Shown: piece by piece, positions 19,508 through 64,000 of the stretch
How the letters are laid out: the number at the start of each line of letters is the position of its first letter
How positions within the stretch are numbered: the first letter of the stretch is position 1
Made by a program: the position numbers and the translations under genes
From: Rhizophagus irregularis
Lineage: Eukaryota
Reading direction: 5' to 3'
DNA length: 64,000 nt
NCBI RefSeq assembly: GCF_026210795.1
Contig: NC_089430.1
Span: 2,294,001 to 2,358,000 of the forward strand
Notes under the pieces: model-generated
What the model was told of the DNA's origin: nothing
Database searches by the model: none
Seen by the model: the letters and a program-made list of their open reading frames with translations, nothing else

Positions 19508-19589
19508 ACCCTGAGGTTCATATTTATTTTTTCTCGTTCTAATGAACAGGTAACTGAAGATTCATATTTATTACAAAGTACAAAGAATC

Positions 19590-20929: not shown

Positions 20930-21018
20930 TCATCAGGTATCCTCGTGTTTCACAACAAGGACTGATGACCATGTAACCTCATCATCAGGTATTCTTGTAT
21001 TTTTTGATAATGACTGAT
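20930..21018. repeat. Two related 39-bp units with TCATCAG...CTGAT(GA) inverted ends; the second is the insertion site of the LINE array
   Basis: TCATCAG-gtatcctcgtgtttcacaacaagga-CTGATGA (20930-20968) and TCATCAG-gtattcttgtattttttgataatga-CTGAT (20982-21018), both with 25-nt cores. Confidence 0.8.
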
Positions 21019-21125
21019 AGATCTCTTACCGCTGATCTATTAACCAAAAATTTTCGGAAAGAAAATTTTATATCTTCGTACTAACAACTCTTATATTTTA
21101 TTTTACCCAACTCATACCTTCTAAC

Positions 21126-23261
21126 ATGTCTGGTAGAAACCTTGCTAGAAGAGGTGGCGGCAGCTATAATCCTAATAGTAATAAGACTGCTCGTCAAGAA
21201 AAGAAAAATAACAAAAAACAACTCTCTGATAATTCTGGTTCTGATAGTGATAACAATACTCAAAAACGTTCCCGTATATTTACTAAAGACTCCATGGATG
21301 AAGACTATGAAGATTTCGTTGCCGACGCGCCGGCTGACGGTGGTTTAGTTGGTTCAACTTCGACCGCTATTCCTCAACAAAATAATTCCCGCAGCACTAC
21401 CCAAGAAAATACTCAAGCTTCTACCCCGAATAATTCTGCTGCGCCTACTGCGCCTGGCCAAGACGCGTCCTCTGGTGCTAACGCGTCTATTCATGCACCA
21501 AGAAACAAAGAAAACAACTCATCCCCTAGCGCGTCCCCTAATATGGACGTAAATGATGGTACATCGCCCGATCAGGCTGTAGATCCCTCCCCTACTATTA
21601 CCATTAATCGTCAAGATTTCCTGGCTGCGGCTGCGCCCAACTCCGCTCCCCAAACTCTAGAGAAACTTAAAACTAATAAGGCAATTATAGATGCCGTTAA
21701 TAATTTATTTTTAGAAACGTATGAATCGTATACCGGTCGGGCTCGTATGACTGGTTCAGGGGACGCTAAGCGTCTCATCATACATTTTCATACTGCGGAG
21801 GCTCGTGACTTGTGTGTTGGAAGCACTCACTCCGATTTTCCGGACCTACAATTCCACCTGTACGACCCTAAACAGCTCCGGTCCGATGAAGACCTCCGTG
21901 CAATTCAAGTCACGGATATACCGTTCTTCATTACTAAACCGCAACTCCAATCCTACTTCAAGAAATTCGGCAATCTCCTTGCCCTCCATCTTTACTCAAG
22001 GAAAGGTGCTAAGATGCAACAAGCTCGCATTGTCTATGATCATGCTGATGCCATCTCCCGTTTCACAACTCAATGGGCCGTTTACTGCTTTTCCACCTGC
22101 TTACGTGTTACCCCTTGCCATTACTCTTTAGAACAAAAAGCTGCTCGTAGAGCGTTCGTAGCTGTTCTCTCCGAACTTCCCGCTAATACCAAAGATATCC
22201 ATCTCGCTCCTTTGGTCAAAGAACATGGAGCAAAAGCTATTAACATTCCCCTTTCCCTAAATTCTTATAAACCCAAGCCTTGGGCTTATGTTACCTTCAA
22301 CTCGCAAGAGACAATGGATGCCGCTATGGAACAGACTATTGGTTTCCAAGGTCGTACTCTTCGATGGGGTACATCCAACAATTCGAAAGCTCTTTGCCAC
22401 CGATGTGGTAAACTCGGTTGTGCTCCTACCTCCTGTCCGCTTAACCAACGCCGTGGTCGTTCACGTACACGTGACCCTGTGGCTGCTCTTAAAGAACGCT
22501 TCAATATTGGCCAAAGGCCCACCCAACAAAGAACGCCGCGCAATAATTCTCGATCTCGATCTCGATCTAAATCTCGGGATCGTTCTGCTTCAGCTCAGCA
22601 TTCTAATTCCAACTCCAATAGACCTAATAATAATAATTCCAATATTAATGCTAAGCCCTCCTCCTCCTCTGGCTCAGCTAACTCCTCCTCAACTGCTCAT
22701 GGACGTACACCTTCCAACAACCGTAAAGGCAAAGATAGATCTGTTTCCTTTTCGTCCAATGCTCGTGCTCCACTCCCGGATCCGAATTCTCCTAATGCTC
22801 TTGAGGCTGCCCTTAAGATTCTTAATGTTTTAAAGAATCTTCAACAAGATGTTGCTCGAGTGGAATCCCGCATTTCACATCTTGAACTTAACAATCAACG
22901 GCTATCTGCTATTGAAGCCCATTTAGGCATCGATCCTCCCTTTGCACCTGTCGTTAATACTGAACCTGATCGAATGGAAGAAGACCCTCCTGAAACCACT
23001 GGCACCTTAATCCAGCATCCCAATGCTCCTTTATCTGCCGGTTCACTGAAATCCTCTTCCTCTGCATCTACACCCAACAAAACCCCACACTCTGCTTCTG
23101 CATCCACTTCTAACCCTTCCCCGCAAGACGAATTGAACTCCGTTATTCAAGATCAAAAAGCGATTAAAGATACTTTACAATCGCTCACTGGTTCCATCCA
23201 AGGTTTTATTGCTTCTCTTGGTGGTTCTCCCTCCGATCGAGCTTCTGCTCTTTCGCAATAA
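21126..23261 (+). CDS. LINE ORF1 (gag-like: RRM-like domains, Cx2Cx4Cx4C knuckle, RS-rich region, coiled coil), copy 1, intact
   Basis: RAIQVTDIPFF..YFKKFGNL, PWAYVTFNS, CHRCGKLGCAPTSC, SRSRSRSKSR, LQQDVARVESRISHLELNN. Confidence 0.9.
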   Translation: MSGRNLARRGGGSYNPNSNKTARQEKKNNKKQLSDNSGSDSDNNTQKRSRIFTKDSMDEDYEDFVADAPADGGLVGSTSTAIPQQNNSRSTTQENTQASTPNNSAAPTAPGQDASSGANASIHAPRNKENNSSPSASPNMDVNDGTSPDQAVDPSPTITINRQDFLAAAAPNSAPQTLEKLKTNKAIIDAVNNLFLETYESYTGRARMTGSGDAKRLIIHFHTAEARDLCVGSTHSDFPDLQFHLYDPKQLRSDEDLRAIQVTDIPFFITKPQLQSYFKKFGNLLALHLYSRKGAKMQQARIVYDHADAISRFTTQWAVYCFSTCLRVTPCHYSLEQKAARRAFVAVLSELPANTKDIHLAPLVKEHGAKAINIPLSLNSYKPKPWAYVTFNSQETMDAAMEQTIGFQGRTLRWGTSNNSKALCHRCGKLGCAPTSCPLNQRRGRSRTRDPVAALKERFNIGQRPTQQRTPRNNSRSRSRSKSRDRSASAQHSNSNSNRPNNNNSNINAKPSSSSGSANSSSTAHGRTPSNNRKGKDRSVSFSSNARAPLPDPNSPNALEAALKILNVLKNLQQDVARVESRISHLELNNQRLSAIEAHLGIDPPFAPVVNTEPDRMEEDPPETTGTLIQHPNAPLSAGSLKSSSSASTPNKTPHSASASTSNPSPQDELNSVIQDQKAIKDTLQSLTGSIQGFIASLGGSPSDRASALSQ

Positions 23262-23308
23262 CTGATTTCTCACTTCCTTCCCCCGTACTTTATTATCATT
23301 GTGTTCTA

Positions 23309-26300
23309 ATGACTGACAATTTTAATTATGATACGTTTGTTCGCAACCCACCCAACCCTGTAGATATTTATAATTTTTCAGAACATGAATCTTTATTCAC
23401 TACTTTAAATTCTTCTCCCATCCCCAATTCGTTTAATATTTCATCTTTTAATGTTAATGGTCTTCGACATAATAGCCAAGTTAAAATTGAACAAATTTCA
23501 AACTTTTTCAACCTTAAACATATTTCCTTTGGTGGTATCGTAGATACCCATCTATCCCCCAAGCAAATTCACTTTTTATCTAAACGCCTTCCTAATTATA
23601 CTGTCTTTTCATCTGACATAGATAAAGCTAAACAAGTTAAATCTACTGGTGGCGTTTCCCTTTTTATTGAAAAAACCCTTGCTTCTCATGTACAAGATTT
23701 TGTTTCACATTCTTCGCGAATTTTATCTGTTGACCTTTATTTCAAAGGCAACGTTAAATTGCGCATTTTTGTTATTTATATTCCTCCTTTTTCTGATTCT
23801 AAATTACGATCAGAAACCATTGACCTTCTTTTACAATTATTAGTGCAAACTAAACAACAAAATTTTTATCACGCCATTTGTGGCGATTTCAATATGCATT
23901 TAGATGCCTATTATCCTATTTATTTTAACCGCCCCTCTGTTGCTTCCTAACGAACTTATCGTTTGCTACATCACTTTTTATCTCATGGATATGAAGAAAC
24001 TATTCCTGTTAACGCTTCTGATTCCTTAGGCACTTTTCACCGTGACGATCAAGTTACTCGTATTGACTATGTTTGGTCTTGTCCAATGCTTAAAAGCTTT
24101 GCTCTCACCTCCTATATATTTGACGCCCAAGACACCTGCTCTTCCGATCACAATCCTATCATCACTTATTTCGATGATTCACTCTTGTTTGCGTCTGTCA
24201 AGGTTGCTCGCGCTAAACAACTTCAACGTCGCAATCGCCGCATATTCAAATTTGATTCAGTTACTGATCAACAATGGGAATTTTTCTCTGCTCATACTGA
24301 CTCTTTATGCGACGTACCGCCATCAACCTTCTCAACATGGCATATTAATCAACAATGCGAATATTTACATTCTCGTATAGTGAAAGCTGCTACTGCCTCC
24401 CTTCCGTCTGTCCTGGTTGGCAATCAACATACGCCTACGGTGCCCAAAGATTTGGAAGCCCTAACTCAACATTATCGTTTCCTCAGCCGTCTTTTGCATT
24501 CGATACGTTTATTGCGAAAATATCCTTCCACTTATTATAATAGACATGAACGTACTTGGTCCACTCATTTCATTAGACTTCAAAAGATTCTTCATCTTTA
24601 TAAGAAGATTATTCCTTCTCCTCCTATTTTACCTACTTCTTTATCCTCATGTAGGCAAGACGATTTTAAACTTTTATTGGCATCTTTAAAGACTATTTCC
24701 GATGCCCTCCATGGTTTCCTTCTTCTCAAAGAAAAAGATTTTCAAGATTCTTCCATTCGTGCCAAATTGGAAGATAGGGACAATAATTTTGAAACCGATA
24801 TTTCCTCCTTTATTAATTCTGCTCTTTCAAGGACTCGACGCCGCATCACCTTGGATCGTGTCTTCATCGACCATCCTACACAACCAAAACTTTTGACGGA
24901 CCCGCATGATATTGATGACGCTGTTATCAACCACTTCCAGAATTCCGTGCCTATAAAGTCATCTCCCCCTGACAATATTTCCGCTCTTCCAGATAGATGG
25001 TCTTCTGCTTATTGCCCTATGGACGATGTGGATTCTTCTATTTACAACTCTTTGTTGGATCCTCCTACCCTTGATGAATGGCTGTCTACGGTCTCTTTGA
25101 TGCCGAATGACAAAGCTTCTGGCCCTTCTATGATTACCTATGAGATGCTTAAGCATCTGGGTTCCAACACTTCAGCTTTGGTTCTAATCCTGGTACAATC
25201 GTGCTTTCGTACTGCTGATATCCCTGATTTATGGCGTCAAGCTATGGTTTTTCCCATCCCTAAACCTCACGATTGGAAATGTCAACTCAAGAATACGAGA
25301 CCTATTACTTTACTTGAAGTAATTAGGAAATCTTTGGTTAAACTCTTTTATAATCGTCTCGCTTCCATTTTGGCTTCAAATGAAGTTCTCAAAGGAGGTA
25401 ACTTCGCCGGTCTCCCAGGTGGTTCTTGTCGCGACCCTATTGTCGTTCTTGAATCTATTATCCATGATGCTCATGTCAACAAATCACCACTTTGGATCCT
25501 TTCGCAAGATATTTCAAAGGCTTTCGACTCAGTTGATCTCAAGATGTTGCGTTTCGCTTTAGAACGCATTAAACTTCCTGCTTCTGCTATCAAGTTTATT
25601 TTATCCTCTTCATGAAACGCTCTAATCGCGTTTTTACTGCTCATGGAACTACTCCTTCTTACCGTGTTCGCATTGGTATAGATCAAGGCGAAGTTATCTC
25701 TCCTTTACTCTGGGTCATATATATAGACCCTTTATTGACTGTTCTCAAAAATGAAATGATGGATCCATATACGCTTCATGCTCCCTCTTTAATTAATCCT
25801 TTGGCTCAGGCTAATTCAGGTGGATTACGAATCAACAATTTGGTCTTCATGGATGACTCTACTTTAATTTCGTCATCCAAATCTGGAATGGAATCAATGC
25901 TCTCTATTACGGAAGAATTTTATCAAATCAACAATACTTCCGCTAATCATAACAAATATGTTTTAATTACTAATTCGTTGCCTCCCACTTCAGTTTTATC
26001 ACCTTCTCCAGTCGTGTTTGACTTGCAATTATCCGGATTGAACATAGTTCTTTCCATTTCTATTGTGCCTATCTCCATGAATAGCTCTTTCCGCTTCCTG
26101 GGCGTGTGGTTCAATGTCGCTGGTTCTCGTGATTTTGTCAAGAAGCAAGTTGCTAGAGAATGTAACTCCTTCGCCGCTACCGTACGCCCTGCCAAATTAT
26201 CTGCTAAACAAATAGTTTATTTACACAACACCGTCCTTATCCCGAAATTGGAATATCGCATGCAAGTCACTCACCTCTCCGAATCTGAATGTGCCTCGGC

Positions 26301-28929
26301 AACTAGCAGTATCCGTTCCTTGGTTAAACACAAGGCCAACTTTTCACGAGTACTCCCTGATTCTATTTTGTTTTTGTCTCAAGGCTTGGGATTGATTAAT
26401 TTATTTTTTCATCAATCACAAACACATTTAACTAATTTATTTTTGTTAGCTAATTCTTCTTCTTCTTTTATGAAAAATTTATTTTTATATAGATTACGTT
26501 TAATTCAATCTTCTTTTTTAATTCCTATCTCCCCATTGTTAGTTAAAGATTGGACTATATGGTCTAAACTTTTTGCTTTTAAACAGGATTATATCGCTTG
26601 CACTATTGCTCTCCTGACCACCACTCCCTTCATGTTGTTGCGCTCACAACTTTCAACTTTGCCTGACCTTACTATGTCTAATGGTCATACACCTTTATAT
26701 GATGTTATGACTCCAAAAGTTTTTATTTCTTACTTCCGACGTCTTAGAAGTTTGCAACTATATTACCTATCACAATTTATTACGCCTCAAGGAACCCATA
26801 TGATTACTTGGAACGTTTATTTATCCAATTTATCGAGCAGGAAAGGTCATCGTGTCCTCCCACACAAATGGTTCAATGACATTCACCAATGCGTCACTGT
26901 TCCTGGTTCCAACTCTCTCCTTTTGGATCGGTTCTCTTCTGATGCTATTCCTTCCAATATCGACTTGGTTCCCGCCTTTGGTTCCTCTCGAAAATCTATG
27001 AAATGGATCGTAACTTTGGATGATGATGGCTCTCCTCTCTTTGGAAAACAGCTCAGTAAACAGCAATATTCCTGCAAGATTGTCCATTGGACTTCTGATT
27101 GTGTGACTCGACCTAATGATGTTATCACGCTCACTCCTTGTCCTGGTTGTTCTAAACATGTACCGGTTACCCATACTAAAAGCAATCCAACAGATGTTAC
27201 TCCTTTATGTATCATCCCAAAACTCTCTCCTCTTCGATCTTTACTTCTCCCAACTACGCAGGAGCGTATTAGACATGACACCACCACTATCGCTTTCCCT
27301 TTTACTTGGGCGGACCTTGACGAGACTGTAAGATCCTATTATGGCCGTTTGGACATTCAACCTAATTTTTCACAAGAAGATGCGATTACTCTCCCCTCTC
27401 CTTCTCCTCTTCCCTCTTTGGGTTCGGCTGCCCCTCTTGCTTTTGCTGCCTCACCGTTAGCGACTCCTCCTGATAACCATTATTGTTTTTATACCGATGG
27501 TTCTTTAATTAACCTTGGCACTCCTGATGTTTCTATGGGTTGGTCTTGGGTTCAAGTCCTTGATGGCGCTGGCTTTTTCCAATCTATCGCTGCTTACGCT
27601 CATGGAATTATTCACAATTGGCCTTCTTCTACAAGGGCTGAAATTGCCGCTATACATGCTGCTCTTACAGTTACTCCTCCCTCTTCAACGGTCACTATTC
27701 ATACTGACTCTCAATCTGCCATAGATGGTCTTCGTCTATGTGCTACGTTTTCTTATTCCAATAGTAGGCTTTATTACAAGACCACCAATTTTGAACTCTG
27801 GGCTATTATTGAACGTCTCATTTCCTCCAAATCTTTATCCGTCACGGCTGTTAAAGTGAAAGGTCACTCTGGTAATTTCTATAATGACTACGCGGACTCT
27901 CTGGCCAACTCTGCACATACTTCTCCTTCAGCAATTCTTCTTTCTGATCTGGATCAAGTATCTCCTCACAATTTCTTATTAAAATATGATGATATTTTAT
28001 GCGAATCCAACCCACGACGCCTATTTAAGCAATATTCGCAAATGCTGTGGATGCATAGATTAACGCGTTTATCGCGTTTTAACTTTACCATTGCTTTATC
28101 CTCTATCTCAGATTTCGTGATTGATTGGGATCTTACCTGGTTCTCGCTAAATTCTGAACCTCAGCATGATGCTTCATTTACTCGTGCTCATGCTTCCTTT
28201 CATCGCACCTTTAAATTCAAACTCTTTTTGGAAGATTTGCCTATCTTGGAACATCTTAAAAGAATTCGCCCGGACTTGTATATTGACATCTTATTGTGTC
28301 GTTCGTGCCTCGACTCCAAGGAAGATCTTATGCACTTGTTTATATGCAAATGTAGACGAATCGCTATGGAACAGATTCTCTTCTCCTACCAACATCACTT
28401 TATCAACAAACTTCAAGAAGCTGGTGATCTCGTTAAGAAAGATCCCTCTTTAATTATTAACAAATTTAAATCTCTTCCTTGTTGGTCCTTTTCTTCTTCA
28501 AATTGGACTTCATATAGCCTTGTCTGTGGCTGCCTTCCGAAATCCTTTGTCGAATTTTTTGAAGAACTTTCTATTCCACGTAACTCTGCGATGAAGGTTA
28601 TCTCTGCTATCCACAATCACTTTATCCAAAAGATTAGAAAACGAATTTGGCTACCGCGCTCCTATGATAAATCTAAATGGGAAGACGCGATGAATATTAC
28701 TCATAAACTCAAACTTTCTCGGCCTTCAAATTTGCCAAAGTCTACGTACTTACCTTTCTCAACTTTACCTCCTCCGACCCTTTCCGACGCCGCACGTGAC
28801 TCCGACGTTGATTATTTAAAGAACTCGATGAAATATGGTTTGCCTTGGTTTAATCACTATTCGGGTTTTATGGGTCATCTAACGGTGCAACTTACTAACA
28901 GCTTTAGCAGGGTGGTGTGTCGATTTTAA
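23309..28929 (+). pseudogene. LINE ORF2 (APE endonuclease-RT-RNase H-CCHC), copy 1; stop at 23948-23950 and 1-nt deletion near 25605
   Basis: SFNVNG, GDFN, RIDY, SDH (APE). RPITLL, QDISKAFDSV, GIDQGEVISPLL, FMDD, FLG (RT). TDGS, RAE, TDSQ, KGHSG, N..AD (RNase H). CRSC..HLFIC. Confidence 0.93.
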
Positions 28930-29325
28930 TAATGGGCGCATTGTTCGTTGGTTTGTTTGCATAGTTGCCTCTTCTTAGGTTGAAATATATTTAGGCGGGG
29001 GATCAGGATAGTTTTAGTGTTATGCGATTTTTCTTTTTGAATTATTTTATAGCTTTATTACTGTTTTGGAGACTATATAGTTTTGTTTTTAGTTAATTTT
29101 ATTTTTCTTTTTTGTACTTTGAAAATTTTATTTTATTTTTTGTAAGTTCGTTAAATAAATTTAATAAAGATAAAGGCTACTATGCCATGTTTGCCTTGAT
29201 AAGGACTGATGACTGATGATGATAGATCTCTTACCGCCGATCTATTAACCAAAAATTTTCGGAAAGAAAATTTTATATCTTCGTACTGACAACTCTTATA
29301 TTTTACCCAACTCATACCTTCTAAC

Positions 29326-31470
29326 ATGTCTAGAAACCTTGCTAGAAGAGGTGGCGGCAGTTATAATCCCAATAGTAATAAGGCTGCTCGTCAAGAAAAG
29401 AAAAATAATAAAAAACAACTCTCTGATAATTCTGGTTCCGATAGTGATAACACTTCTCAAAAACGTTCTCGTATTATTACAAAAGACTCCATGGATGAAG
29501 ACTATGAAGATTTCGTTGCCGACGCGCCGGCTGACGGTGGTTTAGTTGGTTCAACTTCGACCGCTATTCCTCAACAAAATAATTCCCGCAGCACCGCCCA
29601 AGAAAATACTCAAGCTTCTACCCCGAATAATTCTGCTGCGCCTTCTGCGCCCGGCCAAGACGCGTCCTCTGGAGCTAACGCGTCTATTCATGCACCTCGA
29701 AACAAAGAAAATAACTCATCCCCTAACGCGTCCCTTAATATGGACGTGAATGATGGCACATCGCCCGATCAGGCTGTTGATCCCTCCCCTACCATTACCA
29801 TTAATCGTCAAGATTTCCTGGCTGCGGCTGCGCCCAACTCTGCTCCCCAAACTCTAGAGAAACTTAAAACTAATAAGGCAATCATTGATGCCGTTAACAA
29901 TTTGTTTTTAGAAACATATGAATCATATACCGGTCGGGCTCGTATGACTGGTTCAGGGGACGCTAAACGTCTCATCATTCACTTCCATACCGCAGAGGCT
30001 CGAGACTTGTGTATTGGTTCCACACACTCCGATTTTCCGGACCTACAATTCCACCTGTACGATCCCAAACAGCTCCGGTCCGATGAAGACCTCCGTGCAA
30101 TTCAAGTCACGGATATCCCGTTTTTCATTACTAAACCCCAACTACAATCCTATTTCAAGAAATTTGGCAACCTGCTATCCCTTCATCTCTATTCAAGGAA
30201 AGGTGCCAAAATGCAACAAGCCCGCATCGTCTATGATCATGCCGATGCTATCTCCCGTTTTACAACCCAATGGGCAGTCTACTGTTTTTCCACCTGTCTG
30301 CGTGTAACTCCCTGTCATTACTCAGTGGATTTAAAAGCTGCTCGTCGTGAATTCGTTGCAATTCTCTCTGGTCTCCCTGCTAATACTAAAGATATCCATC
30401 TCGCTCCTTTGGTTAAAGAACACGGAGCTAAAGCTATTAACATCCCTCTCTCCTTAAATTCATATAAACCTAAGCCTTGGGCTTATGTTACTTTTAATTC
30501 ACAAGAAACAATGGATGCCGCCATGGAGCAAACTATTGGATTCCAAGGTCGTACTCTTAGATGGGGTACCTCCAATGATTCGAAAGCTCTTTGCCACAGA
30601 TGTGGTAAACTCGGTTGTGCTCCTACCTCCTGTCCTCTCAATCAACGTCGCGGTCGTTCTCGTACACGTGACCCTGATGCTGCTCTCAAAGAACGTTTCA
30701 ACATTGGTCAAAGACCTGCTCAACAACGAGCCCCGCGTAATACTTCTCGATCTCGATCTCGCTCTAAATCACGGGATCGTTCTGCCTCTGCTCAACGTTC
30801 GAATTCCAGCTCCAATGGTTCTAATAATAATAACAATGATAATAAAAATCATAATAATCATAACAACCCTCTCTCCTCTGGTTCAGCAGGTTCCTCCTCT
30901 TCTGCTCATGGACGTACGCCCTCCAACAACCGAAAAGGCAAAAATCGATCTGTTTCGTTTTCGTCCAATGCTCGCACCCCGCTCCCTGATCCAAGTTCTT
31001 CTAATGCCCTTGAGGCTGCTCTTAACATTCTCGATGTGTTGAAGAAACTTCAACAAGATGTTGTTCGTGTGGAATCCCGCATTTCAAATCTTGAACTTAA
31101 CAATCAACGGCTATCTGCTATTGAAGCCCATTTAGGCATTAATCCTCCCTCCGCTCCTGTTGTCAATTCTGAACCTGATCGGATGGAAGAAGACCCTCCT
31201 GAAACTACTGGTACCTTAATCCCACATCCAAATGCTCCCTCGACTTCCAATCCAAAGCACTCTTCTCCTCCCAAATCTACATCCAACACAGCTTCACACT
31301 CTGCTCCTGCTTCCGCTCCAAACCCTTCCCCGCAAGACGATTTAAACTCTGTTATTCAAGATCAAAAAGCGATTAAAGATACTTTACAATCGCTCACTGG
31401 TTCCATTCAAGGTTTTATTGCTTCTCTTGGTGGTTCTCCCTCCGATCGAGCTTCCGCTCCTTCGAAATAA
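29326..31470 (+). CDS. LINE ORF1, copy 2, intact
   Basis: 714-aa ORF homologous to copy 1 ORF1. Confidence 0.9.
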   Translation: MSRNLARRGGGSYNPNSNKAARQEKKNNKKQLSDNSGSDSDNTSQKRSRIITKDSMDEDYEDFVADAPADGGLVGSTSTAIPQQNNSRSTAQENTQASTPNNSAAPSAPGQDASSGANASIHAPRNKENNSSPNASLNMDVNDGTSPDQAVDPSPTITINRQDFLAAAAPNSAPQTLEKLKTNKAIIDAVNNLFLETYESYTGRARMTGSGDAKRLIIHFHTAEARDLCIGSTHSDFPDLQFHLYDPKQLRSDEDLRAIQVTDIPFFITKPQLQSYFKKFGNLLSLHLYSRKGAKMQQARIVYDHADAISRFTTQWAVYCFSTCLRVTPCHYSVDLKAARREFVAILSGLPANTKDIHLAPLVKEHGAKAINIPLSLNSYKPKPWAYVTFNSQETMDAAMEQTIGFQGRTLRWGTSNDSKALCHRCGKLGCAPTSCPLNQRRGRSRTRDPDAALKERFNIGQRPAQQRAPRNTSRSRSRSKSRDRSASAQRSNSSSNGSNNNNNDNKNHNNHNNPLSSGSAGSSSSAHGRTPSNNRKGKNRSVSFSSNARTPLPDPSSSNALEAALNILDVLKKLQQDVVRVESRISNLELNNQRLSAIEAHLGINPPSAPVVNSEPDRMEEDPPETTGTLIPHPNAPSTSNPKHSSPPKSTSNTASHSAPASAPNPSPQDDLNSVIQDQKAIKDTLQSLTGSIQGFIASLGGSPSDRASAPSK

Positions 31471-31517
31471 CCGACTTCTCTACTATTTTCCCCGTCTATC
31501 GTTATCATTGTGTTCTA

Positions 31518-37139: not shown

Positions 37140-37432
37140 CAATGGGCGCATTGTTCGTTAGTTTGTTTGCATAGTTGCTTCTTCTTAGGTTGGAATATAT
37201 CTAGGCGGAGGATCAGGATAGTTTTAGTGTTATGCGATTTTTTCCTTTTTGAATTAATTTTATAGCTTTATTACTGTTTTGGAGACTATATAGTTTTGTT
37301 TTTAGTTAATTTTATTTTTCCTTTTTTGTACTTTGAAAATTTTATATTATTTTTGTAAGTTCGTTAAATAAATTTAATAAAGATAAAGGCTACTATGCCA
37401 TGTTTGCCTTGATAAGGACTGATGATGATGAT

Positions 37433-38699: not shown

Positions 38700-38808
38700 A
38701 CTGATAGATCTCTTACCGCCGATCTATTAACCAAAAATTTTCGGAAAAGAAAATTTTATATCTTCGTACTAACTACTCTTATATTTTACCCAACTCATAC
38801 CTTCTAAC

Positions 38809-40941: not shown

Positions 40942-40988
40942 CTGATTTCTCACCTCCTTTCCCCGTACTTTATTATCATAGTGTTCTA

Positions 40989-46615: not shown

Positions 46616-47012
46616 CAATGGGCGCATTGTTCGTTAGTTTGTTTGCATAGTTGCTTCTTCTTAGGTTGGAATATATCTAGGCGGAGGATCAGGATAGTTT
46701 TAGTGTTATGCGATTTTTTCCTTTTTGAATTAATTTTATAGCTTTATTACCGTTTTGGAGACTATATAGTTTTGTTTTTAGTTAATTTTATTTTTCTTTT
46801 TTTGTACTTTGAAAATTTTATATTATTTTTGTAAGTTCGTTAAATAAATTTAATAAAGATAAAGGCTACTATGCCATGTTTGCCTTGATAAGGACTGATG
46901 ACTGATATATAGATCTCTTACCGCTGATCTATTGACCAAAAATTTTCGGAAAGAAAATTTTATATCTTCGTACTAACAACTCTTATATTTTACCCAACTT
47001 ATACCTTCTAAC

Positions 47013-49145: not shown

Positions 49146-49192
49146 CTGATTTCTCAACTCTCCTCCCCGTTTATAATTATCATTGTGTTCTA

Positions 49193-52100: not shown

Positions 52101-54812
52101 TATTTACACAACACTGTCCTTATTCCGAAATTGGAATATCGCATGCAAGTCACTCACCTCTCTGAATCTGAATGTGCCTCGGCAACCAGCAGTATCCGTT
52201 CCTTGGTTAAACATAAGGCCAATTTTTCACGTGTACTCCCAGATTCCATTTTGTTTTTATCTCAAGGCTTGGGATTGATCAATTTATTTTTTCACCAATC
52301 ACAAACACATTTAACTAATTTGTTTATATTGGCTAATTATTCTTCTTTTTTTATGAAAAATTTATTTTTATATAGATTACGTTTAATTCAATTTTCTTTT
52401 TTGATTCCCATTTCTCCATTGTTAGTTAAAGATTGGACTTTATGGTCTAAACTTTTCGCTTTTAAACAGGATTATATCGCTTGCACTATTGCTCTCCTGA
52501 CCACCACTCCTTTCAAGTTGTCACGTTCTCGATTTTTAACCTCGTCTGACCTCACCGTACCTGATGGTCACACGCCTTTATTTGAAGTGATGACTCCAAA
52601 AATTTTTATATCTTACTTCCGACGTCTAAGAAGTTTGCAACTCTATTACCTATCTCAATTCATCACGCCTCAAGGAACCCATATGATCACTTGGAATGTT
52701 TATTTATCCAATCTATCAAGTAGGAAAGGCCATCGAGTCCTCCCGCATAAATGGTTCAATGACATCCACCAATGCGTCACTGTTCCAAATTCCAATTCTC
52801 TGCTCTTGGATCAATTTTCTTCTGAAGCTATCCCTTCAAACATTGATTTGGCTCCAGCCTTTGGCTCCTCTAGAAAATCCATGAAATGGATCGTGACTTT
52901 AAACGAAGATGGCTCTCCTCTTTTTGGAAAACAACTTAGCAAACAACAATATTCCTGCAAGATTGTCCATTGGACCTCTGATTGTGTGACTCGACCTAAT
53001 GATATTATCACGCTTACTCCTTGTCCCGGTTGTTCCAAACATGTACCGGTTACCCATACTAAAAGCAACCCAACAGATGTTACTCCTCTATGTATCATCC
53101 CAAAACTTTCTCCTCTTAGATCTTTACTTCTCCCAACAACGCAGGAGCGTATTAGACATGACACCACCACTATTACTTCTCCTTTTACCTGGGCGGACCT
53201 TGACGAGATTGTAAGATCCTATTATGGTCGTTTGGACATTCTACCTAATTTTTCACAAGAAGATGTGGTTACTCTCCCTTCTCCTTCTCCTTCTCCCTCC
53301 TTGGGTTCAGCTGCCTCTCTTGCTTTTGCTGCCTCACCGTTAGCGACTCCTCCTGATAATCATTATTGTTTTTATACTGATGGTTCTTTAATTAACCTTG
53401 GCACTCCTGATGTTTCTATGGGTTGGTCTTGGGTACAAGTCCTTGATGGCGCTGGTTTTTTCCAATCTATCGCTGCTCACGCTCATGGAATTTTTCACAA
53501 TTGGCCTTCTTCTACAAGAGCTGAAATCGCCGCTATACATGCTGCTCTTACAGTCACTCCTCCGTTTTCAACGGTTACTATTCATACTGACTCTCAATCT
53601 GCCATAGATGGTTTTCGTCTATGTGCTACCTTTTCTTATTCCAATAGTAGGCTTTATTACAAGACCACCAATTTTGAACTCTGGGCTATTATTGAACGTC
53701 TCATTTCCTCCAAATCTTTATCCGTCACGGCTATTAAAGTGAAAGGTCACTCTGGTAATTTCTATAATGACTACGCGGACTCTCTGGCCAACTCTGCGCA
53801 TACTTCTTCTTCAGCAATTCTTCTTTCTGATCTGGATCAAGTATCTCCTCACGATTTCTTATTAAAATATGATGATATTTTATGCGAATCCAACCCACGA
53901 CGCCTATTTAAGCAATATTCGCAAATGCTGTGGATGCATAGATTAACGCGTTTATCGCGTTTTAACTTTACCATTGCTTTATCCTCTATCTCAGATTTCG
54001 TGATTGATTGGGATCTTACCTGGTTCTCGCTAAATTCTGAACCTCAGCATGATGCTTCATTTACTCGTGCTCATGCTTCCTTTCATCGCACCTTCAAATT
54101 CAAACTCTTTTTGGAAGATTTGCCTACCTTGAAACATCTTAAAAGAATTCGCCCGGACTTGTATATTGACATCTTATTGTGTCATTCGTGCCTTGACTCC
54201 AAGGAAGATTTCATGCACTTGTTTATGTGCAAATGTAGACGAATCGCTATGGAACAGATTCTCCTCTCCTACCAACATCACTTTATCAACAAACTTCAAG
54301 AAGCTGGTGATCTCGTTAAGAAATATTCCTCTTTAATTATTAACAAATTTAAATCTCTTCCTTGTTGGTCCTTTTCTTCTTCAAATTGGACTTCATATAG
54401 CCTTGTCCGTGGCTGCCTTCCGAAATCCTTTGTCGAATTCTTTGAAGAACTTTCTATTCCACGTAACTCTGCGATGAAGGTTATCTCTGCTATCCACAAT
54501 CACTTTATCCAAAAGATTAGAAAACGAATTTGGCTACCGCGCTCCTATGATAAATCTAAATGGGAAGACACGATGAATATTACTCATAAACTCAAACTTT
54601 CTCGGCCTTCAAATTTGCCAAAGTCTACGTACTTACCTTTCTCAACTTTACCTCCTCCGACCCTTTCCGACGCCGCACGTGCCTCCGACGTTGATTATTT
54701 AAAGAACTCGATGAAATATGGTTTGCCTTGGTTTAATCACTATTCGGGTTTTATGGGTCGTCTAACGGTGCAACTTACTAACAGCTTTAGCAGGGTGGTG
54801 TGTCGATTTTAA
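49193..54812 (+). pseudogene. LINE ORF2, copy 4; two 1-nt deletions (~50505, ~50635) and catalytic D>N changes
   Basis: Fragments 49193-50527 and 50649-54812; RIDY>RINY and QDISKAFD>QNISKAFD. Confidence 0.92.
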
Positions 54813-55204
54813 CAATGGGCGCATTGTTCGTTGGTTTGTTTGCATAGTTGCCTCTTCTTAGGTTGAAATATATTTAGGCGGGGGATCAGGATAGTTTTAA
54901 TGTTATGCGATTTTTCTTTTTGAATTATTTTATAGCTTTATTACTGTTTTGGAGACTATATAGTTTTGTTTTTAGTTAATTTTATTTTTCTTTTTTGTAC
55001 TTTGAAAATTTTATTTTATTTTTGTAAGTTCGTTGAATAAATTTAATAAAGATAAAGGCTACTATGCCATATTTGCCTTGATAAGGACTGATAAGGACTG
55101 ATAGATCTCTTACCACCGATCTATTGACCAAAAATTTTCGGAAAGAAAATTTTATATCTTCGTACTAACAACTCTTATATTTTACCCAACTCATACCTTC
55201 TAAC

Positions 55205-57342
55205 ATGTCTAGAAACCTTGCTAGAAGAGGTGGCGGCAGCTATAATCCCAACAGTAATAAGGCTGCTCGTCAAGAAAAGAAAAATAATAAAAAACAGCTC
55301 TCTGATAACTCTGGTTCTGATAGTGATAATAATTCTCAAAAACGTTCCTGTATACTTACAAAAGACTTCATGGATGAAGACTATGAAGATTTCGTTGCTG
55401 ACGCGCCGGCTGACGGTGGTTTAGTTGGTTCAACTTCGACCGCTATTCCTCAACAAAATAATTCCCGCAGCACCTCTCAAGAAAATACTCAAGCTTCTAC
55501 CCCGAATAATTCTGCTGTGCCTACTGCGCCTGGCCAAGACGCGTCCTCTGGAGCTAACGCGTCTATTCATGCACCTCGAAACAAAGAAAATAACTCATCC
55601 CCTAACGCGTCCCTTAATATGGACGTAAATGATGGTACATTGCCCGATCAGGCTATCGATCCCTCCCCTACTATTACTATTAATCGTCAAGATTTCCTGG
55701 CTGCGGCTTCGCCCAACTCTGCTCCCCAAACTCTTGAGAAACTTAAAACTAATAAGGCAATCATTGATGCCGTCAACAATTTATTTTTAGAAACCTATGA
55801 ATCGTACACCGGTCGGGCTCGTATGACTGGTTCAGGGGACGCTAAACGTCTCATCATTCATTTTCACACTGCGGAGGCTCGTGACTTGTGTGTTGGTAGC
55901 ACACACTCTGATTTTCCGGACCTACAATTCCATCTGTACGATTCCAAACAACTCCGGTCCGATGAAGACCTCCGTGCCATTCAAGTTACAGATATACCGT
56001 TCTTTATTACTAAACCGCAGCTCCAATCCTACTTCAAGAAATTTGGCAATTTGCTATCCCTTCATCTTTATTCAAGGAAAGGTGCCAAAATGCAACAAGC
56101 ACGCATTGTTTACGATCATGCTGATGCTATTTCCCGTTTTACGACCCAATGGGCAGTCTACTGTTTTTCCACTTGTTTACGTGTTACTCCCTGTTATTAT
56201 TCTGTGGAGCATAAAGCTGCTCGTCGTGAATTCGTTGCAATTCTCTCTGGTCTCCCTGCTAACACTAAAGATATCCACCTCGCTCCGTTAGTCAAAGAAC
56301 ATGGAGCCAAAGCTATTGACATTCCTCTTTCCCTAAATTCGTATAAACCTAAGCCTTGGGCTTATGTTACTTTAACTCACAAGAGACAATGGACGCCGCT
56401 ATAGAACAAACTATTGGTTTCCAAGGTCGTACTCTGCGATGGGGTACATCCAATGATTCGAAAGCCCTTTGCCACAGATGTGGCAAACTAGGTTGTGCTC
56501 CTACCTCCTGCCCACTCAATCAACGTCGCGGTCATTCGCGTACACGTGACCCTGTTGCTGCCCTTAAAGAACGTTTCAACATTGGCCAACGACCTGCTCA
56601 GCAAAGAACTCTGCATAATAATTTTCAGTCTCGATCTCGATCGAAATCTCGGGATCGTTCTGTCTCTGCTCAGCGTTCTAATTCAAATCCTAATCGTCCT
56701 AATAATAACGATAATAACAATAATAACAATAACATTACTAAACCCTCCTCTGGTTTAGTTAACTCCTCTTCATCTGCTCATGGACGTACACCTTCCAATA
56801 ATCGAAAAGGCAAAGATAGATCTGTTTCCTTTTCATCCAATGCTCGTGCTCCACTCCCAGACTCAAATACTTCTAATGCCCTTGAGGCTGCCCTTAAGAT
56901 ACTTAACGTATTGCAAACTCTTCAACAAGACGTTGCACGAGTGGAATCCCGCATTTCATCCCTTGAACTTAACAACTAACGACTTTCTGCTATAGAAGCT
57001 CATTTAGGCATCAATCCTCCCTCCGCACCTGTTGTCAATTCTGAACCTGATCGGATGGAAGAAGACCCTCCTGAAACTACTGGTACCTTAATCCCACATC
57101 CTAATGCTCCCTTATCTTCTGGTGCAAAGAATTCCTCTTCCCCCAAATCTACATCCAACAATGCTCCACACTCTGCTCCCGCTTCCACTTCTACCTCTTT
57201 CCCGCAAGACGAATTGAACTCAGTTATTCAAGATCAAAAAGCGATTAAAGATACTTTACAATCGCTCACTGGTTCCATTCAAGGTTTTATTGCTTCTCTT
57301 GGTGGTTCTCCCTCCGATCGAGCTTCAGCTCCTTCGCAATAA
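55205..57342 (+). pseudogene. LINE ORF1, copy 5; frameshift near 56372 and stop at 56977-56979
   Basis: Three collinear fragments: 55205-56404, 56356-56979, 57055-57342. Confidence 0.9.
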
Positions 57343-57389
57343 CTGATTTCTCAACTCTCCTCCCCGTACTTTATTATCACAGTGTTCTA

Positions 57390-60300
57390 ATGTCTGACAA
57401 TTTTAATCATGATACGTTTGTTCGCAACCCACCCACCCTTGTAGATACTTTTAAATTTTCAGAACATGAATCTTTATTTACTACTTTAAGTTCTTCTCCT
57501 ATTCCCAATTCTTTTAATATTTCATCCTTTAATGTTAATGGTCTTCGCCATAATAGTCAAGTTAAAATGGAACAAATTTCAAACTTTTTTAACCTCAGAC
57601 ATATTTCCTTTGGTAGTATTGTAGATACCCATTTATCCCCTAAACAAATTCATTTTTTATCTAAACGCCTTCCTAATTATACTGTCTTTTCATCTGATAT
57701 TGATAAAACTAAACCAGTTAAATCTACTGGCGGCGTTTCCCTCTTTATTGAAAAATCCCTTGCTTCCCATGTACAAGATTTCATTTCACATTCATCACGC
57801 ATTTTATCTGTTGATCTTTATTTTAAAGGCAACGTTAAATTACGTATTTTTGTTATTTATATTCCCCCTATTTCTGATTCTAAATTACGATCGGAAACTA
57901 TTGACCTTCTTTTACAACTATTGGTGCAAACTAAACAACAGAAATTTTATCACGCCATTTGTGGCGATTTCAATATGCACTTAGATACCTACTACCCTAT
58001 TTATTTTAACCGCCCTTCTGTTGCTTCCCAACGAGCTTATCGTTTGCTACATCATCTTTTATCTCATGGTTACGAAGAAACTATCCCTGTTAACGCTTCT
58101 GACTCCTTAGGCACCTTTCACCGTGACGACCAAGTTACTCGTATAGATTATGTTTGGTCTTGTCCTATGCTGAAAAGCTTTGCTCTTACCTCCTATATAT
58201 TTGACGCCCAAGACACCTGCTCTTCTGATCACAATCCTATCATCACGTATTTTGATGTTTCACTCCTGGCTGCGTCTGTCAAGGTTGTTCGTGCTAAACA
58301 ACTTCGAGGTCAAACTCACCGCATATTTAAATTCGATTCAGTCACTGTTCAACAATGGGAATCCTTTTCTGCTCATGCTGATTTTCTATGCGACGTACCG
58401 CCATCAACTTTCTCGACATGGCATATTAACCAACAATGCGAATATTTACATTCCCGTATCGTAAAAGCTGCTAATGCCTCTCTTCCTTCTGTCACAGTTG
58501 GAAATCATTATACGCCTACTATACCTAAGGATTTGGAAGCTTTAACTCAACATTATCGTTTCCTCAGCCGTCTCTTGCATTCGATACGCTTATTGCGAAA
58601 ATATCCTTCCACTTATTATAACAGATATGAGCGTACTTGGTCCACTCATTTTATTCGACTTCAAAATATTCTTCATCTTTATAAGAAGGTTATTCCTTCT
58701 CCCCCTATTTTACCTATTTCTTTATCCACTTGTAGGCAAGACGATTTTAAATTTTTGTTGGACTCTTTAAAGACTATCTCCAGCGCCCTTTATGGCCTCC
58801 TTTTGCTTAAAGAAAAAGATTTTCAGGACTCTTCCATTCGTGCTAAATTGGATGATAGGGATAATAATTTTGAAACTGACATCTCCTCATTCATTGATTC
58901 TGCTCTCTCAAGAACTCGACGTCGTATTACCTTGGATCGTGTCTTCATTGATCATCCTACACAGCCTAAACTGTTGACGGACCCACATGATATTGATGAC
59001 GCTGTTATCAACCACTTCCAGAATTCCGTTCCTATAAAATCATCTATTCCTGATAACATTTCCGTTCTCCCAGATAGATGGTCTTCTGCTTATCGCCCCA
59101 TGGACAATGTGGATTCTTCTATTTATGATTCTTTGATGGATCCTCCTACTCTTGAAGAATGGTTGTCTACGGTCTCTTCTATGCCTAACGACAAAGCTCC
59201 TGGTCCTTGTATGATTACCTATGAGATGCTTAAGCATCTGGGTTCAAACGCTTCTGCCTTGATTTTAATCCTTGTCCAATCATGTCTTCGTACCGCAGAT
59301 ATTCCTGATTTATGGCGTCAGGCTATGGTTTTTCCTATCCCTAAACCCCACGATTGGAAATGTCAACTCAAGAATACAAGACCGATTACTTTACTTGAAG
59401 TAATCAGGAAATCTTTAGTCAAACTCTTTTATAATCGTCTTGCTTCCATTTTGGCTTCGAATGAAGTTTTTAAAGGAGGTAACTTCGCCGGTCTCCCTGG
59501 TGGTTCTTGTCGAGACCCTATTGTTATTCTCGAATCTATTATCCATGATGCTCATGTCAACAAATCGCCGCTTTGGATCCTTTCACAAGATATTTCAAAG
59601 GCTTTTGACTCGGTTGACCTCAAGATGTTGCGCTTCGCTTTAGAGCGCATCAAACTTCCTGCTTCTGCTACCAAGTTTATTTTATCTCTTTTTATGAAAC
59701 GCTCTAATCGCGTTTTTACTGCTCATGGAACTACACCTTCCTACCGTGTACGTATTGGTATAGATCAAGGCGAAGTTATCTCTCCCTTACTTTGGGTTAT
59801 ATATATAGACCCTTTATTAACTGTTCTTAAGAATGAAATGATGGATCCATATATACTTCATGCTCCTTCTTTATCTAATCCCTTGGCTGAGATTAGTTCA
59901 GATGAATTACGAATTAACAACTTGGTCTTTATGGATGATTCCACTTTAATTTCATCATCCAAACCTGGAATGGAATCGATGCTCTCTATTACAGAAGAAT
60001 TTTATCAGATTAATAATACTTCCGCTAATCACAACAAATATGTTTTAATTACTAATTCGTTGCCTCCCACTTCAGTTTCTTCGCCTTCTCCAGTCGTGTT
60101 TGACTTGCAATTATCTGGACTGAACAAAGTTCCTTCCATTTCTATTGTGCCTATCTCCATGAATAGCTCTTTTCGCTTCTTGGGCGTCTGGTTCAATGTC
60201 GCCAGTTCTCGTGATTTTGTCAAGAAGCAAGTTGCTCGTGAATGCAATTCCTTCGCGGCTATCGTTCGCCCTGCCAAACTATCTGCAAAACAAGTTGTTT

Positions 60301-63011
60301 ATCTGCACAATACCGTCCTTATTCCGAAGCTGGAATATCGTATGCAAGTCACTCACCTCTCCAAATCCGAATGTACCTCGGCAACCAGCAGCATCCGTTC
60401 CTTGGTTAAACATAAGGCCAACTTTTCACGAGTACTCCCTGATTCTATTTTGTTTTTATCTCAAGGCTTGGGATTGATTAATTTATTTTTTCACCAATCA
60501 CAAACACATTTAACTAATTTGTTTTTATTAGCTAATTCTTCTTCTTCTTTTATGAAATATTTATTTTTATATAGATTACGTTTAATTCAATTTTCTTTTT
60601 TGATTCCTATTTCTCCATTGTTAGTTAAAGATTGGACTATATGGTCTAAACTTTTCGCTTTTAAACAGGATTATATCGCTTGCACTATTGCTCTCCTGAC
60701 CACCACTCCTTTCAAGTTGTCACGTTCTCAATTTTCAACCTCGTCTGACCTCACCATATCTGATGGTCACACGCCTTTATTTGAAGTGATGACTCCAAAA
60801 ATTTTCGTATCTTACTTCCGACGCCTTAGAAGTTTGCACCTTTATTACCTATCTCAATTCATCACACCTCAAGGAACCCATATGATCACTTGGAATGTTT
60901 ATTTATCCAATCTACCAAGTAGGAAAGGTCATCGAATCCTCCCGCATAAATGGTTTAACGATATTCACCAATGCGTCACTGTCCCAAATTCCAATTCTCT
61001 GCTCTTAGATCAATTCTCTTCTGAAGCTATCCCCTCAAATATTAACCTAGTTCCAGCCTTTGGTTCTTCTAGAAAATCCATGAAATGGATCGTGACTTTG
61101 GACGATGATGGCTCTCCTCTTTTTGGAAAACAACTTAGTAAACAACAATATTCCTGCAAGATTGTCCATTGGACCTCTGATTGTGTAACTCGACCTAATG
61201 ATGTTATCACGCTCACTCCTTGTCCTGGTTGTTCTAAACATATACCGGTTACCTATACTAAAAGCAATCCAACAGATGTTACTCCTTTATGTATCATCCC
61301 AAAACTTTCTCCTCTTAGATCTTTAATTCTCCCAACAACGCAGGAGCGTATTAGACATGACACCACCACTATTACTTCTCCTCTTACTTGGGCGGACCTT
61401 GACGAGACTGTAAGATCCTATTATGGTCGTTTGGACATTCAACCTAATTTTTCACAAGAAGATGTGGTTACTCTCCCTTCTCCTTCTCCTCCTCCCTCTT
61501 TGGGTTCGGCTGCCCCTCTTGCTTTTGCTGCCTCACCGTTAGCGACTCCTCCTGATAACCATTATTGTTTTTATACCGATGGTTCTTTAATCAACCTTGG
61601 CACTCCTGATGTTTCTATGGGTTGGTCTTGGGTTCAAGTCCTCGATGGCGCTGGCTTTTTCCAATCTATCGCTGCTCATGCTCATGGAATTATTCACAAT
61701 TGGCCTTCTTCTACAAGAGCTGAAATTGCCGCTATACATGCTGCTCTTACAGTTACTCCTCCCTTTTCAACGGTCACTATTCATACTGACTCTCAATCTG
61801 CCATAGACGGTCTTCGTCTCTGCGCTACTTTTTCTTATTCCAATAGTAGGCTTTATTACAAGACCACCAATTTTGAACTCTGGGCTATTATTGAGCATCT
61901 TATTTCATCCAAATCTTTATCCGTCACGGCCGTTAAAGTGAAAGGCCACTCTGGTAATTTCTACAATGACTACGCGGACTCACTGGCCAACTCTGCGCAT
62001 ACTTCCTCTTCAGCAATTCTTCTTTCTGATCTGGATTAAGTATCTCCTCACGATTTCTTATTAAAATATGATGATATTTTATGCGAATCTAACCCACGAC
62101 GCCTACTCAAGCAATATTCACAAATGCTGTGGATGCATAGATTAACGCATTTATCGCGTTTTAACTTTACCATTACTTTATCTTCTATCTCAGATTTCGT
62201 GATTGATTGGGATCTTACTTGGTTCTCGTTAAATTCTGAACCTCAACATGATGCTTCTTTTACTCGTGATCATGCTTCCTCTCATCGCACCTTCAAATTC
62301 AAACTCTTTTTGGAAGATTTGCCTACCTTAGAACATCTTAAAAGAATTCGCCCGGACTTGTATATCGACATTTTATTGTGTCGTTCATGCCTTGACTCCA
62401 AGGAAGATTTCATACACTTGTTTATGTGCAAATGTAGACGAATCGCTATGGAACAGATTCTCCTCTCCTACCAACATTATTTTATCAACAAACTTCAAGA
62501 AGCTGGTGATCTCGCTAAGATAGATCCCTCTTTAATTATTAACAAATTTAAATCTCTTCCTTGTTGGTCCTTTTCTTCTTCAAATTGGGCTTCATATAGT
62601 CTTGTCCGTGGCTGCCTTCTGAAATCCTTTGTCGAATTTTTTGAAGAACTTTCTATTCCACGAAATTCTGCGATGAAGGTTATCTCTGCTATCCACAATC
62701 ACTTTATCCAAAAGATCAGAAAACGAATTTGGCTACCGCGCTCCTATGATAAATCTAAATGGAAAGACGTGATGAATATTACTCATAAACTTAAACTTTC
62801 TCGGCCTTCAAATTTGCCAAAGTCCACGTACTTACCTTTCTCGACTTTACTTCCTCCGACCCTTTCCGACGCCGCACGTGACTCCGACGTTGATTATTTA
62901 AAGAACTCGATGAAATATGGTTTGCCTTGGTTTAATCACTATTCGGGCTTTATGGGTCGTCTAACGGTGCAACTTACTAACAGCTTTAGCAGGGTGGTGT
63001 GTCGATTTTAA
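57390..63011 (+). pseudogene. LINE ORF2, copy 5; single stop at 62037-62039
   Basis: 1549-aa ORF with APE, RT and RNase H motifs intact, then CAA>TAA, with in-frame continuation to 63011. Confidence 0.93.
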
Positions 63012-63298
63012 TAATGGGCGCATTGTTCGTTGGTTTGTTTGCATAGTTGCCTCTTTTTAGGTTGAAATATATTTAGGCGGGGGATCAGGATAGTTTTAGT
63101 GTTATGCGATTTTTCTCTTTGAATTAATTTTATAGCTTTATTACTGTTTTGGAGACTATATAGTTTTGTTTTTAGTTAATTTTATTTTTCTTTTTTGTAC
63201 TTTGAAAATTTTATTTTATTTTTGTAAGTTCGTTAAATAAATTTAATAAAGATAAAGGCTACTATGCCATATTTGCCTTGATAAGGACTGATGATGAT

Positions 63299-64000
63299 CA
63301 TACTTTCTCCCCCGTTGGGCTCTGCCCATTTTTTCCCATGAAGTTATGGATGAAAAATATGAGGATTTTTTGCCTTGAGTGATAGTAAAAGGACTTTTCG
63401 ACGTTATATGAAGTTATTACTGAGGTCTTTAGTTTCGCCCGAACTCCTTACGGCTTATATTGAGTTAGGACCGTTATCATGAGTCTTGGAGTTACCAATA
63501 ATACTGTAAAATGGCAGTTCCATACGAACGTTCCACTGGGCTTTCTGAAAGGTTGAAAAGTAGTGCGTCTTGGTTTCTACGCCTTTAAAGTCTAACTGGC
63601 CAAGTGGTTCGCAGGCCGGACCGGTATTTCTTGGAAGGAGCTCCTGACCAACGTATTTCTTGCTAGTTGATGTTGTTAACTGGGGAGTTAGTCTTCTAAA
63701 ATAAGGAGACGGAGTTGAGATGTATGTTTGGTGAATTTTACTCAGGTTTTTCTCATTGCACTTCGAGTTTTCCTGAGGTTTATGTCTTTATTTTTTGCTT
63801 TTTGTTTTTCTTGGTCATTTTTTTTGGTGTAACCTTATTTTCTTTGGGGGGTGGGGGGATACTGGAAAATTTGATCGTCATGGTGGCTTGGTGTTACAAT
63901 TTTAAAATCGATCATCATTGGGGTGATAAGGGGGTGACAGGTTGGGTACCGCAGTTTTTGTAGTATGCCGATCAAGGTGGTCACATGATGGACTATCATT
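63299..64000 (+). mobile_element. Non-autonomous partner element, copy B (runs off window end)
   Basis: Near-identical to 37433-~38131; begins C(A/G)TACTTTCTCC directly after a LINE (GAT)n tail. Confidence 0.8.

Follow-up and report, generated by a model that had tools for sequence, protein, structure and literature searches.

The window analysed here is a stretch of 64,000 nucleotides of the Rhizophagus irregularis contig NC_089430.1 (positions 2,294,001 to 2,358,000, forward strand). Comparison of the window with itself revealed a head-to-tail array on one strand at 21019-63298 with five repeats of 8.2 kb, each a full-length long interspersed nuclear element (LINE) that measures 8192-8209 bp from junction to junction and begins at a common 5' start. 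The element is a retrotransposon without long terminal repeats (non-LTR) of the apurinic/apyrimidinic endonuclease (APE) type, in which open reading frame 1 (ORF1) is followed by an ORF2 with APE and reverse transcriptase (RT) domains. Pairwise, the copies are 90.8-94.4% identical (5.6-9.2% divergence). A 1.25-kb non-coding unit, S1, lies between LINE copies 2 and 3, and a second unit, S2, reaches from 63299 to the window end; S2 and the right end of the array run beyond the 64-kb window. A preliminary description of this DNA had reported five diverged ~8.2-kb LINEs, head-to-tail on one strand and directly abutting, after a genomic flank. The number, order and divergence of the copies were borne out by the self-comparison. 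The LINEs do not abut throughout, since S1 intervenes, and the flank before copy 1, which does end in the junction motif (with one mismatch), is the end of another mobile element, hereafter the host element. Coordinates are collected in Table 1.

Table 1. Features of the array, of the host element at its left end, and of the spacers found in distant relatives.
Feature	Position	Strand	Basis or remark
Host element, decayed D5-like primase-helicase and family B DNA polymerase, Maverick/Polinton-like	14020..21018	+	left end approximate
Two 45-nt host repeats, 52-bp spacing, each ending in motif or variant	20922..21018	+	73% identical
Left copy of 14-bp target, one mismatch	21005..21018	+	motif scan
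LINE copy 1	21019..29196	+	ORF1 21126-23261; ORF2 23309-28929, one stop and one frameshift
14-bp target copy and 13 nt of motif suffixes	29197..29223	+	motif scan, suffix parsing
LINE copy 2	29224..37409	+	ORF1 29326-31470 open; ORF2 31518-37139, one stop
14-bp target copy and GAT x3	37410..37432	+	motif scan, suffix parsing
Non-coding SINE-like unit S1	37433..38679	+	tail related to LINE 3' UTR
14-bp target copy and 12 nt of motif suffixes	38680..38705	+	motif scan, suffix parsing
LINE copy 3	38706..46885	+	ORF1 stop; ORF2 frameshift and stop
14-bp target copy and 11 nt of motif suffixes	46886..46910	+	motif scan, suffix parsing
LINE copy 4	46911..55078	+	ORF1 open; ORF2 two frameshifts; endonuclease RID changed to RIN
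14-bp target copy and 10-nt suffix, i.e. two overlapping whole motifs	55079..55102	+	motif scan, suffix parsing
LINE copy 5	55103..63278	+	ORF1 broken; ORF2 57390-63011, one stop
14-bp target copy and GAT x2	63279..63298	+	motif scan, suffix parsing
Non-coding unit S2, leaves window	63299..64000	+	98% identical to S1
Spacers of stacked relatives	L001:6365-6397, L002:5325-5357, L005:60-93, L005:7807-7839		
SINE, short interspersed nuclear element; UTR, untranslated region.

The 14-mer TGATAAGGACTGAT is present at all seven junctions, exact at six and with one mismatch at the left edge of the array, and a second, overlapping exact copy lies at 55089. Sites resembling it (at most two mismatches) number nine in the window against 0.6 expected by chance, and none of 100 shuffles gave nine. 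The seven junction coordinates of the preliminary description were correct, and the motif that it placed at every junction is there. On the 3' side, every complete unit ends precisely, ...TTT(G/A)CCT being followed directly by TGATAAGG; all six complete units lack poly(A) and have this exact 3' junction, and each carries AATAAA 25-28 nt upstream of its end. Variation is confined to the letters that separate the 14-mer from the following 5' start. Here each of the six internal junctions holds 6-13 extra nt after the 14-mer, composed wholly of joined suffixes of the 14-mer, and words drawn at random from the window can be parsed in this way with a probability of 0.04-0.3% each. The variable junction extras noticed earlier are thus present, all of them motif suffixes and all on the 5' side. 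No telomeric repeats were found in the window.

Contigs from four public runs were aligned to 36900-39200 and to 20780-21130, and the counts that follow refer to the loose contig ends listed for these regions (24 of 720 and 24 of 66, respectively). In all four runs (19, 6, 11, and 10 contigs) the LINE 3' end continues up to 37409 and then joins (A/G)GTTTTTGACCAGT followed by variable sequence. The non-coding unit joins the same alternative 14-mer at 38679-38681 in two of the four runs (7 and 1 contigs), and the 3' flank in one contig of run X13 has neither 14-mer. Target preference is strong and not single: two or more unlike 14-mers serve as targets, as does one flank outside both motifs. The first motif is also found without a LINE, inside a high-copy 52-bp repeat of the host element. 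In three contigs of run X2 the LINE end is succeeded by the motif and then by CCATGT..., the sequence found after the empty motif at 20957-20975, and one contig of run X1 contains an entire motif-to-motif host unit without a LINE. Many contigs from all four runs cover the host repeat (20780-21130), and the tail of the short unit is joined to the first motif of that repeat in two of the four. Empty sites thus read host-motif-host and filled sites host-motif-element-motif-host, and the motif is therefore most likely a duplication of the target site (TSD), 14 bp long (15 bp counting a shared T).

The preliminary description had assigned the 14-mer to the DNA 3' end of the element itself, so that elements would insert into each other's tails. 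The motif does follow all six complete units in the window, and in the distant relatives L001, L002, and L005 a 33-34-nt spacer that resembles but differs from the host site (25/33) hints at an element-borne mimic there. We nevertheless consider this assignment highly improbable for the array, because in all four runs this 3' end is also found joined to another 14-mer and because the motif occurs in empty host repeats and before copy 1. That each insertion recreates a landing pad is supported, most likely by way of target-site duplication and not of an element-borne 3' end.

Pairwise synonymous divergence (dS) between the copies ranged from 0.09 to 0.43. The ratio of nonsynonymous to synonymous divergence (dN/dS) was low in all ten pairs (ORF1 0.10-0.21, ORF2 0.10-0.15), as was the corresponding ratio of changes common to two copies (pN/pS 0.08-0.09). 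Each copy carries 1-3 stops or frameshifts, none of them common to two copies. From the low ratios and the private lesions we infer that the copies diverged while functional and died separately. A tree of 33 rows was built from the five copies and 28 database proteins chosen from 154 (long family members and three outgroups, some of them isoform models from a single gene). The array label requires 5 changes on this tree, all forced by branches with Shimodaira-Hasegawa-like approximate likelihood-ratio test (SH-aLRT) values of at least 95, and the number of changes was no lower than with shuffled labels. The nearest proteins of copies 1 to 4 come from other contigs (98.9, 96.8, 97.6, and 96.4% amino-acid identity, the first being P0151), against at most 94.0% for array mates; copy 5 is without a close relative (93.0 vs. 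92.8%). P0009, near-identical to copy 3 but skipping its stop, was excluded from this comparison. The copies have mosaic sequences, and no two of them share an identical tract longer than 241 nt. Mutation resembling repeat-induced point mutation was not seen among the private changes, which are mostly transitions in both directions.

These data bear on whether the array grew by duplication. A single insertion multiplied by tandem duplication or unequal crossing-over, or an artefact of assembly, would produce the head-to-tail order, and no junction was bridged with 31 letters on either side among the public contigs listed (the longest pieces), so that read-level proof of the array assembly is missing. 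Unequal crossing-over from a single insertion does not fit the private lesions, the purifying selection over 5.6-9.2% divergence, the scatter of the copies on the tree, the six different junctions, or the 241-nt limit on identical tracts, and we regard this explanation as extremely improbable. The array is best explained by serial, separate retrotransposition, as the preliminary description had supposed. Two narrower candidates were examined and rejected. Co-duplication of a LINE with the non-coding unit was dismissed because the LINE 3' ends before S1 and S2 match at 669/696 positions and the junction extras differ. Co-duplication of the host element with copy 1 was likewise set aside: on one of the contigs where a family LINE and a D5/pPolB element are neighbours by accession number, the LINE is 98.9% like copy 1 and its host only 89% like the present one, which suggests that two host copies each received an insertion of their own. 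Accessions of sister-family ORF2 proteins cluster on one contig, but isoform models confound this pattern, and it was not taken as evidence.

It is also conceivable that the array is a concatemer from one or a few events, in which the RT jumped end-to-end between co-expressed RNAs. All five LINEs are full-length with similarly few lesions (1-3 each), and their mosaic structure means that template switching or gene conversion occurs in this family. RNA jumps would leave a whole motif at every junction only if each RNA ended in the motif, and the distance to the nearest outside relative varies from 1% to 7%, suggesting different ages. On balance we think a concatemeric origin very unlikely.

The host element at the left end of the array is, judging from its sequence, Maverick-like, of a D5-helicase/pPolB type. 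On entering it the GC content climbs from ~27% to 41%. The ORF at 14617-16473 matched DUF5906 (E 9e-20) and also Pox_D5, and the region 18176-18874 matched DNA_pol_B_2 at E 1.7e-5, just below the curated cut-off; this polymerase is broken and of the organellar/viral type. Among the host-element ORFs scanned there was no integrase or capsid gene, no inverted repeat longer than 31 nt was found in 13800-21100 (the right end of the host lies past the array), and the D5 protein had no relative in viral contigs. Among Glomeromycotina, homologues are multi-copy in R. irregularis, R. clarus, and Diversispora, and Mavericks are reported (PMC11952901) to have expanded in Glomerales. Of the two 45-nt repeats the first is empty and the second is the landing site of the array. 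One contig each in runs X13 and X14 (two of the four runs) joins the end of the last host ORF directly to the repeat, which links the target to the D5/pPolB element. As a single strand, the empty repeat (20929-20968) is predicted to fold into a hairpin of -13.5 kcal/mol and the filled repeat into one of -5.3 kcal/mol, values obtained without a shuffle control. Other observations on the host concern its left end, where short repeats stand in tandem (14407-14535), and a stretch of ~330 bp (20595-20924) that is missing from some other host copies; this stretch includes a 47-bp piece (20829-20875) with a sharp right end of its own in public contigs and is probably the remnant of a nested small transposon.

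The LINE encodes an ORF1 protein of ~711 aa with an RRM_1 domain (Pfam) and a CCHC-like motif visible in the translation, and an ORF2 of 1873 codons (majority frame) with Exo_endo_phos_2 (APE), RVT_1, and RNase_H domains. R. irregularis and R. clarus supply nearly all of the best 120 of 253 homologues, the closest match being at 92%. The endonuclease motifs N, Y, GDFN, RID, and SDH are present in four of the five copies. In copy 5 the endonuclease spans 57510-58256, and an Asp-for-Glu replacement at the APE metal site is lineage-wide. An endonuclease profile matched the L1 structure at E 2e-14, with R1Bm and TRAS1 chains absent among 59 matches, and among retrotransposons the predicted fold compared best with the L1 endonuclease variant 2v0r (Z 22.5, root-mean-square deviation 3.1, 224 aligned), followed by TRAS1 (Z 20.6) and R1Bm (Z 19.2); the putative target-reading loop is poorly predicted (pLDDT < 50 at 194-210). 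The best solved relatives of the ORF2 profile were human L1 ORF2p. A single ORF2 protein searched against the PDB failed to separate L1 from R2, and profiles separated them; an ESM Atlas query returned generic RT clusters only. Profile and fold comparison together suggest an endonuclease that leans away from R1 and is nearest to human L1 among retrotransposons, a placement that reflects endonuclease and ORF2 similarity.

The non-coding units S1 and S2 agree at 685/698 aligned letters (98%). The tail of S1 resembles the LINE 3' UTR (z 6.8, 0/200 shuffles), and S1 is without an ATG-started ORF of at least 100 aa. Neither a tRNA gene (ARAGORN) nor an Rfam match was found in the unit, and Rfam over 13500-39500 gave one chance match only (E 0.48). 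Many variant contigs of the unit occur in all four runs. It shares with SINEs a LINE-like 3' tail and the insertion signature of its partner, and lacks a Pol III head (tRNA, 5S, 7SL, or small nuclear RNA [snRNA]). S1 also contains two pairs of 26-27-nt direct repeats (38168-38295) spaced 34-35 bp, possibly an internal promoter or a structure.

We consider it probable that the array arose by serial insertion, in which the LINE and the non-coding unit partnered with it favour a 14-bp site within the terminal repeat of a Maverick-like host and duplicate that site on insertion. The APE domain would nick the bottom strand at T|TGATAAGG, and reverse transcription would begin exactly at the last base of the element, without poly(A). 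A cut in the top strand 14 bp further on would yield the 14-bp duplication, while at the upstream DNA end the motif suffixes may be added, before second-strand synthesis, through slippage or jumps between templates. ORF2 would mobilise the non-coding unit in trans through its LINE-like tail. The target survives for the next insertion because each insertion likely duplicates it.

Several observations weigh against this reading. The two targets agree at only 6/14 positions, which is poorly explained by strict protein recognition, no 5' junction at the second target was present among the loose ends listed, and the left motif is one base off the next copy. All five LINEs being full-length is unusual for serial target-primed reverse transcription. 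In 110 of the 111 proteins with a recognisable motif, among them families of 40% identity, Asp occupies the position of the metal-binding Glu of L1 (QET); five aligned soil relatives retain Glu there. It speaks for the reading that on three of five contigs tested a D5/pPolB model has a family ORF2 model only 3-4 accession numbers away, but accession order is a proxy for position, the five were chosen because they hold both host and LINE proteins, and on the other two the models are 38 and 391 accessions apart, with more divergent hosts. Finally, the evidence comes from the window and from public contigs and proteins.

The unlike targets permit another reading, in which target choice is carried by RNA: the 14-mer flanking the element in a read-through transcript would anneal to matching nicked DNA, the target of the parent would seed its daughters, and the endonuclease may be only loosely specific. 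The absence of poly(A) and the exact 3' junction in all six complete units would be expected, as would one family at two unlike 14-mers, and R1Bm is said in PMC7265360 to require downstream target sequence for accurate reverse transcription. Conversely, the AATAAA 25-28 nt before the end would favour cleavage near the end, and the two targets have a common GAC core and differ by transitions at positions 11-13, which is compatible with one degenerate site read by a protein. On the opposite strand the second 14-mer reads CACTGG...; the window contains no real match to this target. We regard an RNA-carried target as unlikely. If it applied, a LINE without a fixed target would inherit one through read-through RNA and a single protein could colonise the ends of unrelated transposons, a doubtful proposition at present; equally tentative is the idea that in a sister lineage (L001, L002, L005) such a flank has turned into a lasting imitation of the site that the element itself carries. 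The family would then be a natural RNA-programmed inserter of full-length 8 kb in fungi.

Distant relatives were sought by a scan of metagenome proteins with a profile, which gave 21 loci from 203 pattern hits, six of them extending past an element end. L001 and L002 (98.4% identical to each other, one family, ~31% amino-acid identity to copy 4) pass from a 3' end directly into a new ORF1, and the 3' end of another copy precedes L005. Sequence upstream of L006 and L017 is weakly 3'-UTR-like (z 3.4 and 4.4), and L007 has neither feature. The 3' end of L005 itself abuts a CACTA-type transposase region, within its coding frame (the adjoining piece matched Transposase_21 at E 5e-11). The 33-34-nt spacers between the stacked relatives match this transposase site at only 25/33 positions and are not a synonymous variant of it; they may represent a mimic carried by the element, a second target, or chimerism of the contigs. 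On evidence that is thin, stacking and the targeting of transposons look common to the clade. No match to a 22-nt pattern from the LINE 3' end was found in metagenome or viral contigs.

Elsewhere in the window lie a Tc1/mariner element (3115-4501), with 36-bp inverted repeats around HTH_Tnp_Tc3_2 and DDE_3 ORFs, and a fragment of an NmrA-like NAD(P)-binding gene of the host genome (8288-8692).

The array resembles those of R1 and Tx1-Mar in a fixed 3' junction at a motif that is also found empty in the host repeat, and in independent insertions. According to PMC2718515, ancestral R1 of Drosophila has a 14-bp TSD, variation only at the 5'-junction end of the TSD, and tandem arrays separated by the TSD. 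The Rhizophagus LINE is alike in being an APE-type LINE with a fixed 3' junction, a 14-bp duplication, 5'-only variation, TSD-separated head-to-tail copies, and some off-target insertions. The target of R1 is 28S ribosomal DNA, whereas the Rhizophagus LINE targets the end of another mobile element; it also differs from R1 in an endonuclease that scores closer to L1, in its two unlike targets, and in 5' extras that repeat suffixes of the motif. As a general rule, according to bioRxiv 10.1101/158386, duplication of a target preserves it and does not consume it. Since regeneration of the target by TSD is already the published explanation for tandem arrays of R1, the mechanism is not new.

Crocodilian Tx1-Mar and its partner SINEU are described in PMC4494074 as targeting two unlike regions of Mariner-N4_AMi with tandem insertions. 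They share with the Rhizophagus LINE an apparent L1-group affinity, a preference for sites in DNA transposons, two target regions without recognisable similarity, a non-autonomous partner at the same site, and tandem insertions sandwiching the TSD. The Rhizophagus LINE differs from Tx1-Mar in its fungal host, the RNase H in ORF2, the D5/pPolB target element, and a partner without an snRNA or tRNA head. Among fungi, CNL1 of Cryptococcus neoformans and MoTeR of Magnaporthe also form non-LTR arrays with short TSDs, and CNL1 is reported to insert into its own copies, according to PMC12810828. These are single-ORF elements of the R2 superfamily at telomeres, whereas the Rhizophagus LINE is a two-ORF APE element abutting the end of a mobile element. 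The Rhizophagus insertions lie end-to-end at a duplicated host motif. Arrays of non-LTR elements are also formed by Zepp of Chlorella, which reportedly inserts into itself and is nested within the element, and by HeT-A/TART of Drosophila, which are added to chromosome ends.

A target-specific Rhizophagus LINE was not found in the literature searched, of which supplements, Repbase, and most subscription papers were outside the scope, so that a database description may exist. In the accessible main text of three papers on the transposons of these fungi (PMC11075540, PMC11952901, PMC8647823) the word "tandem" is absent and "target site" does not occur in a relevant sense. We have thus not found described the setting in which this known mechanism operates here, that of a fungal LINE, L1-like and equipped with RNase H, stacked together with a non-coding partner at the ends of mobile elements, with two unlike sites. 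With two unlike 14-bp targets, no poly(A), and exact 3' junctions, the family offers a clean system in which to separate the endonuclease from RNA-DNA pairing in APE-LINE targeting, and an element that inserts 8 kb in full length at a short, defined site is also of interest for gene delivery. In the fungus itself, a key symbiont of crops, a large LINE family with recent activity uses other mobile elements as landing sites, and the piling of tens of kilobases at single points bears on the growth and the strain differences of repeat-rich genomes.

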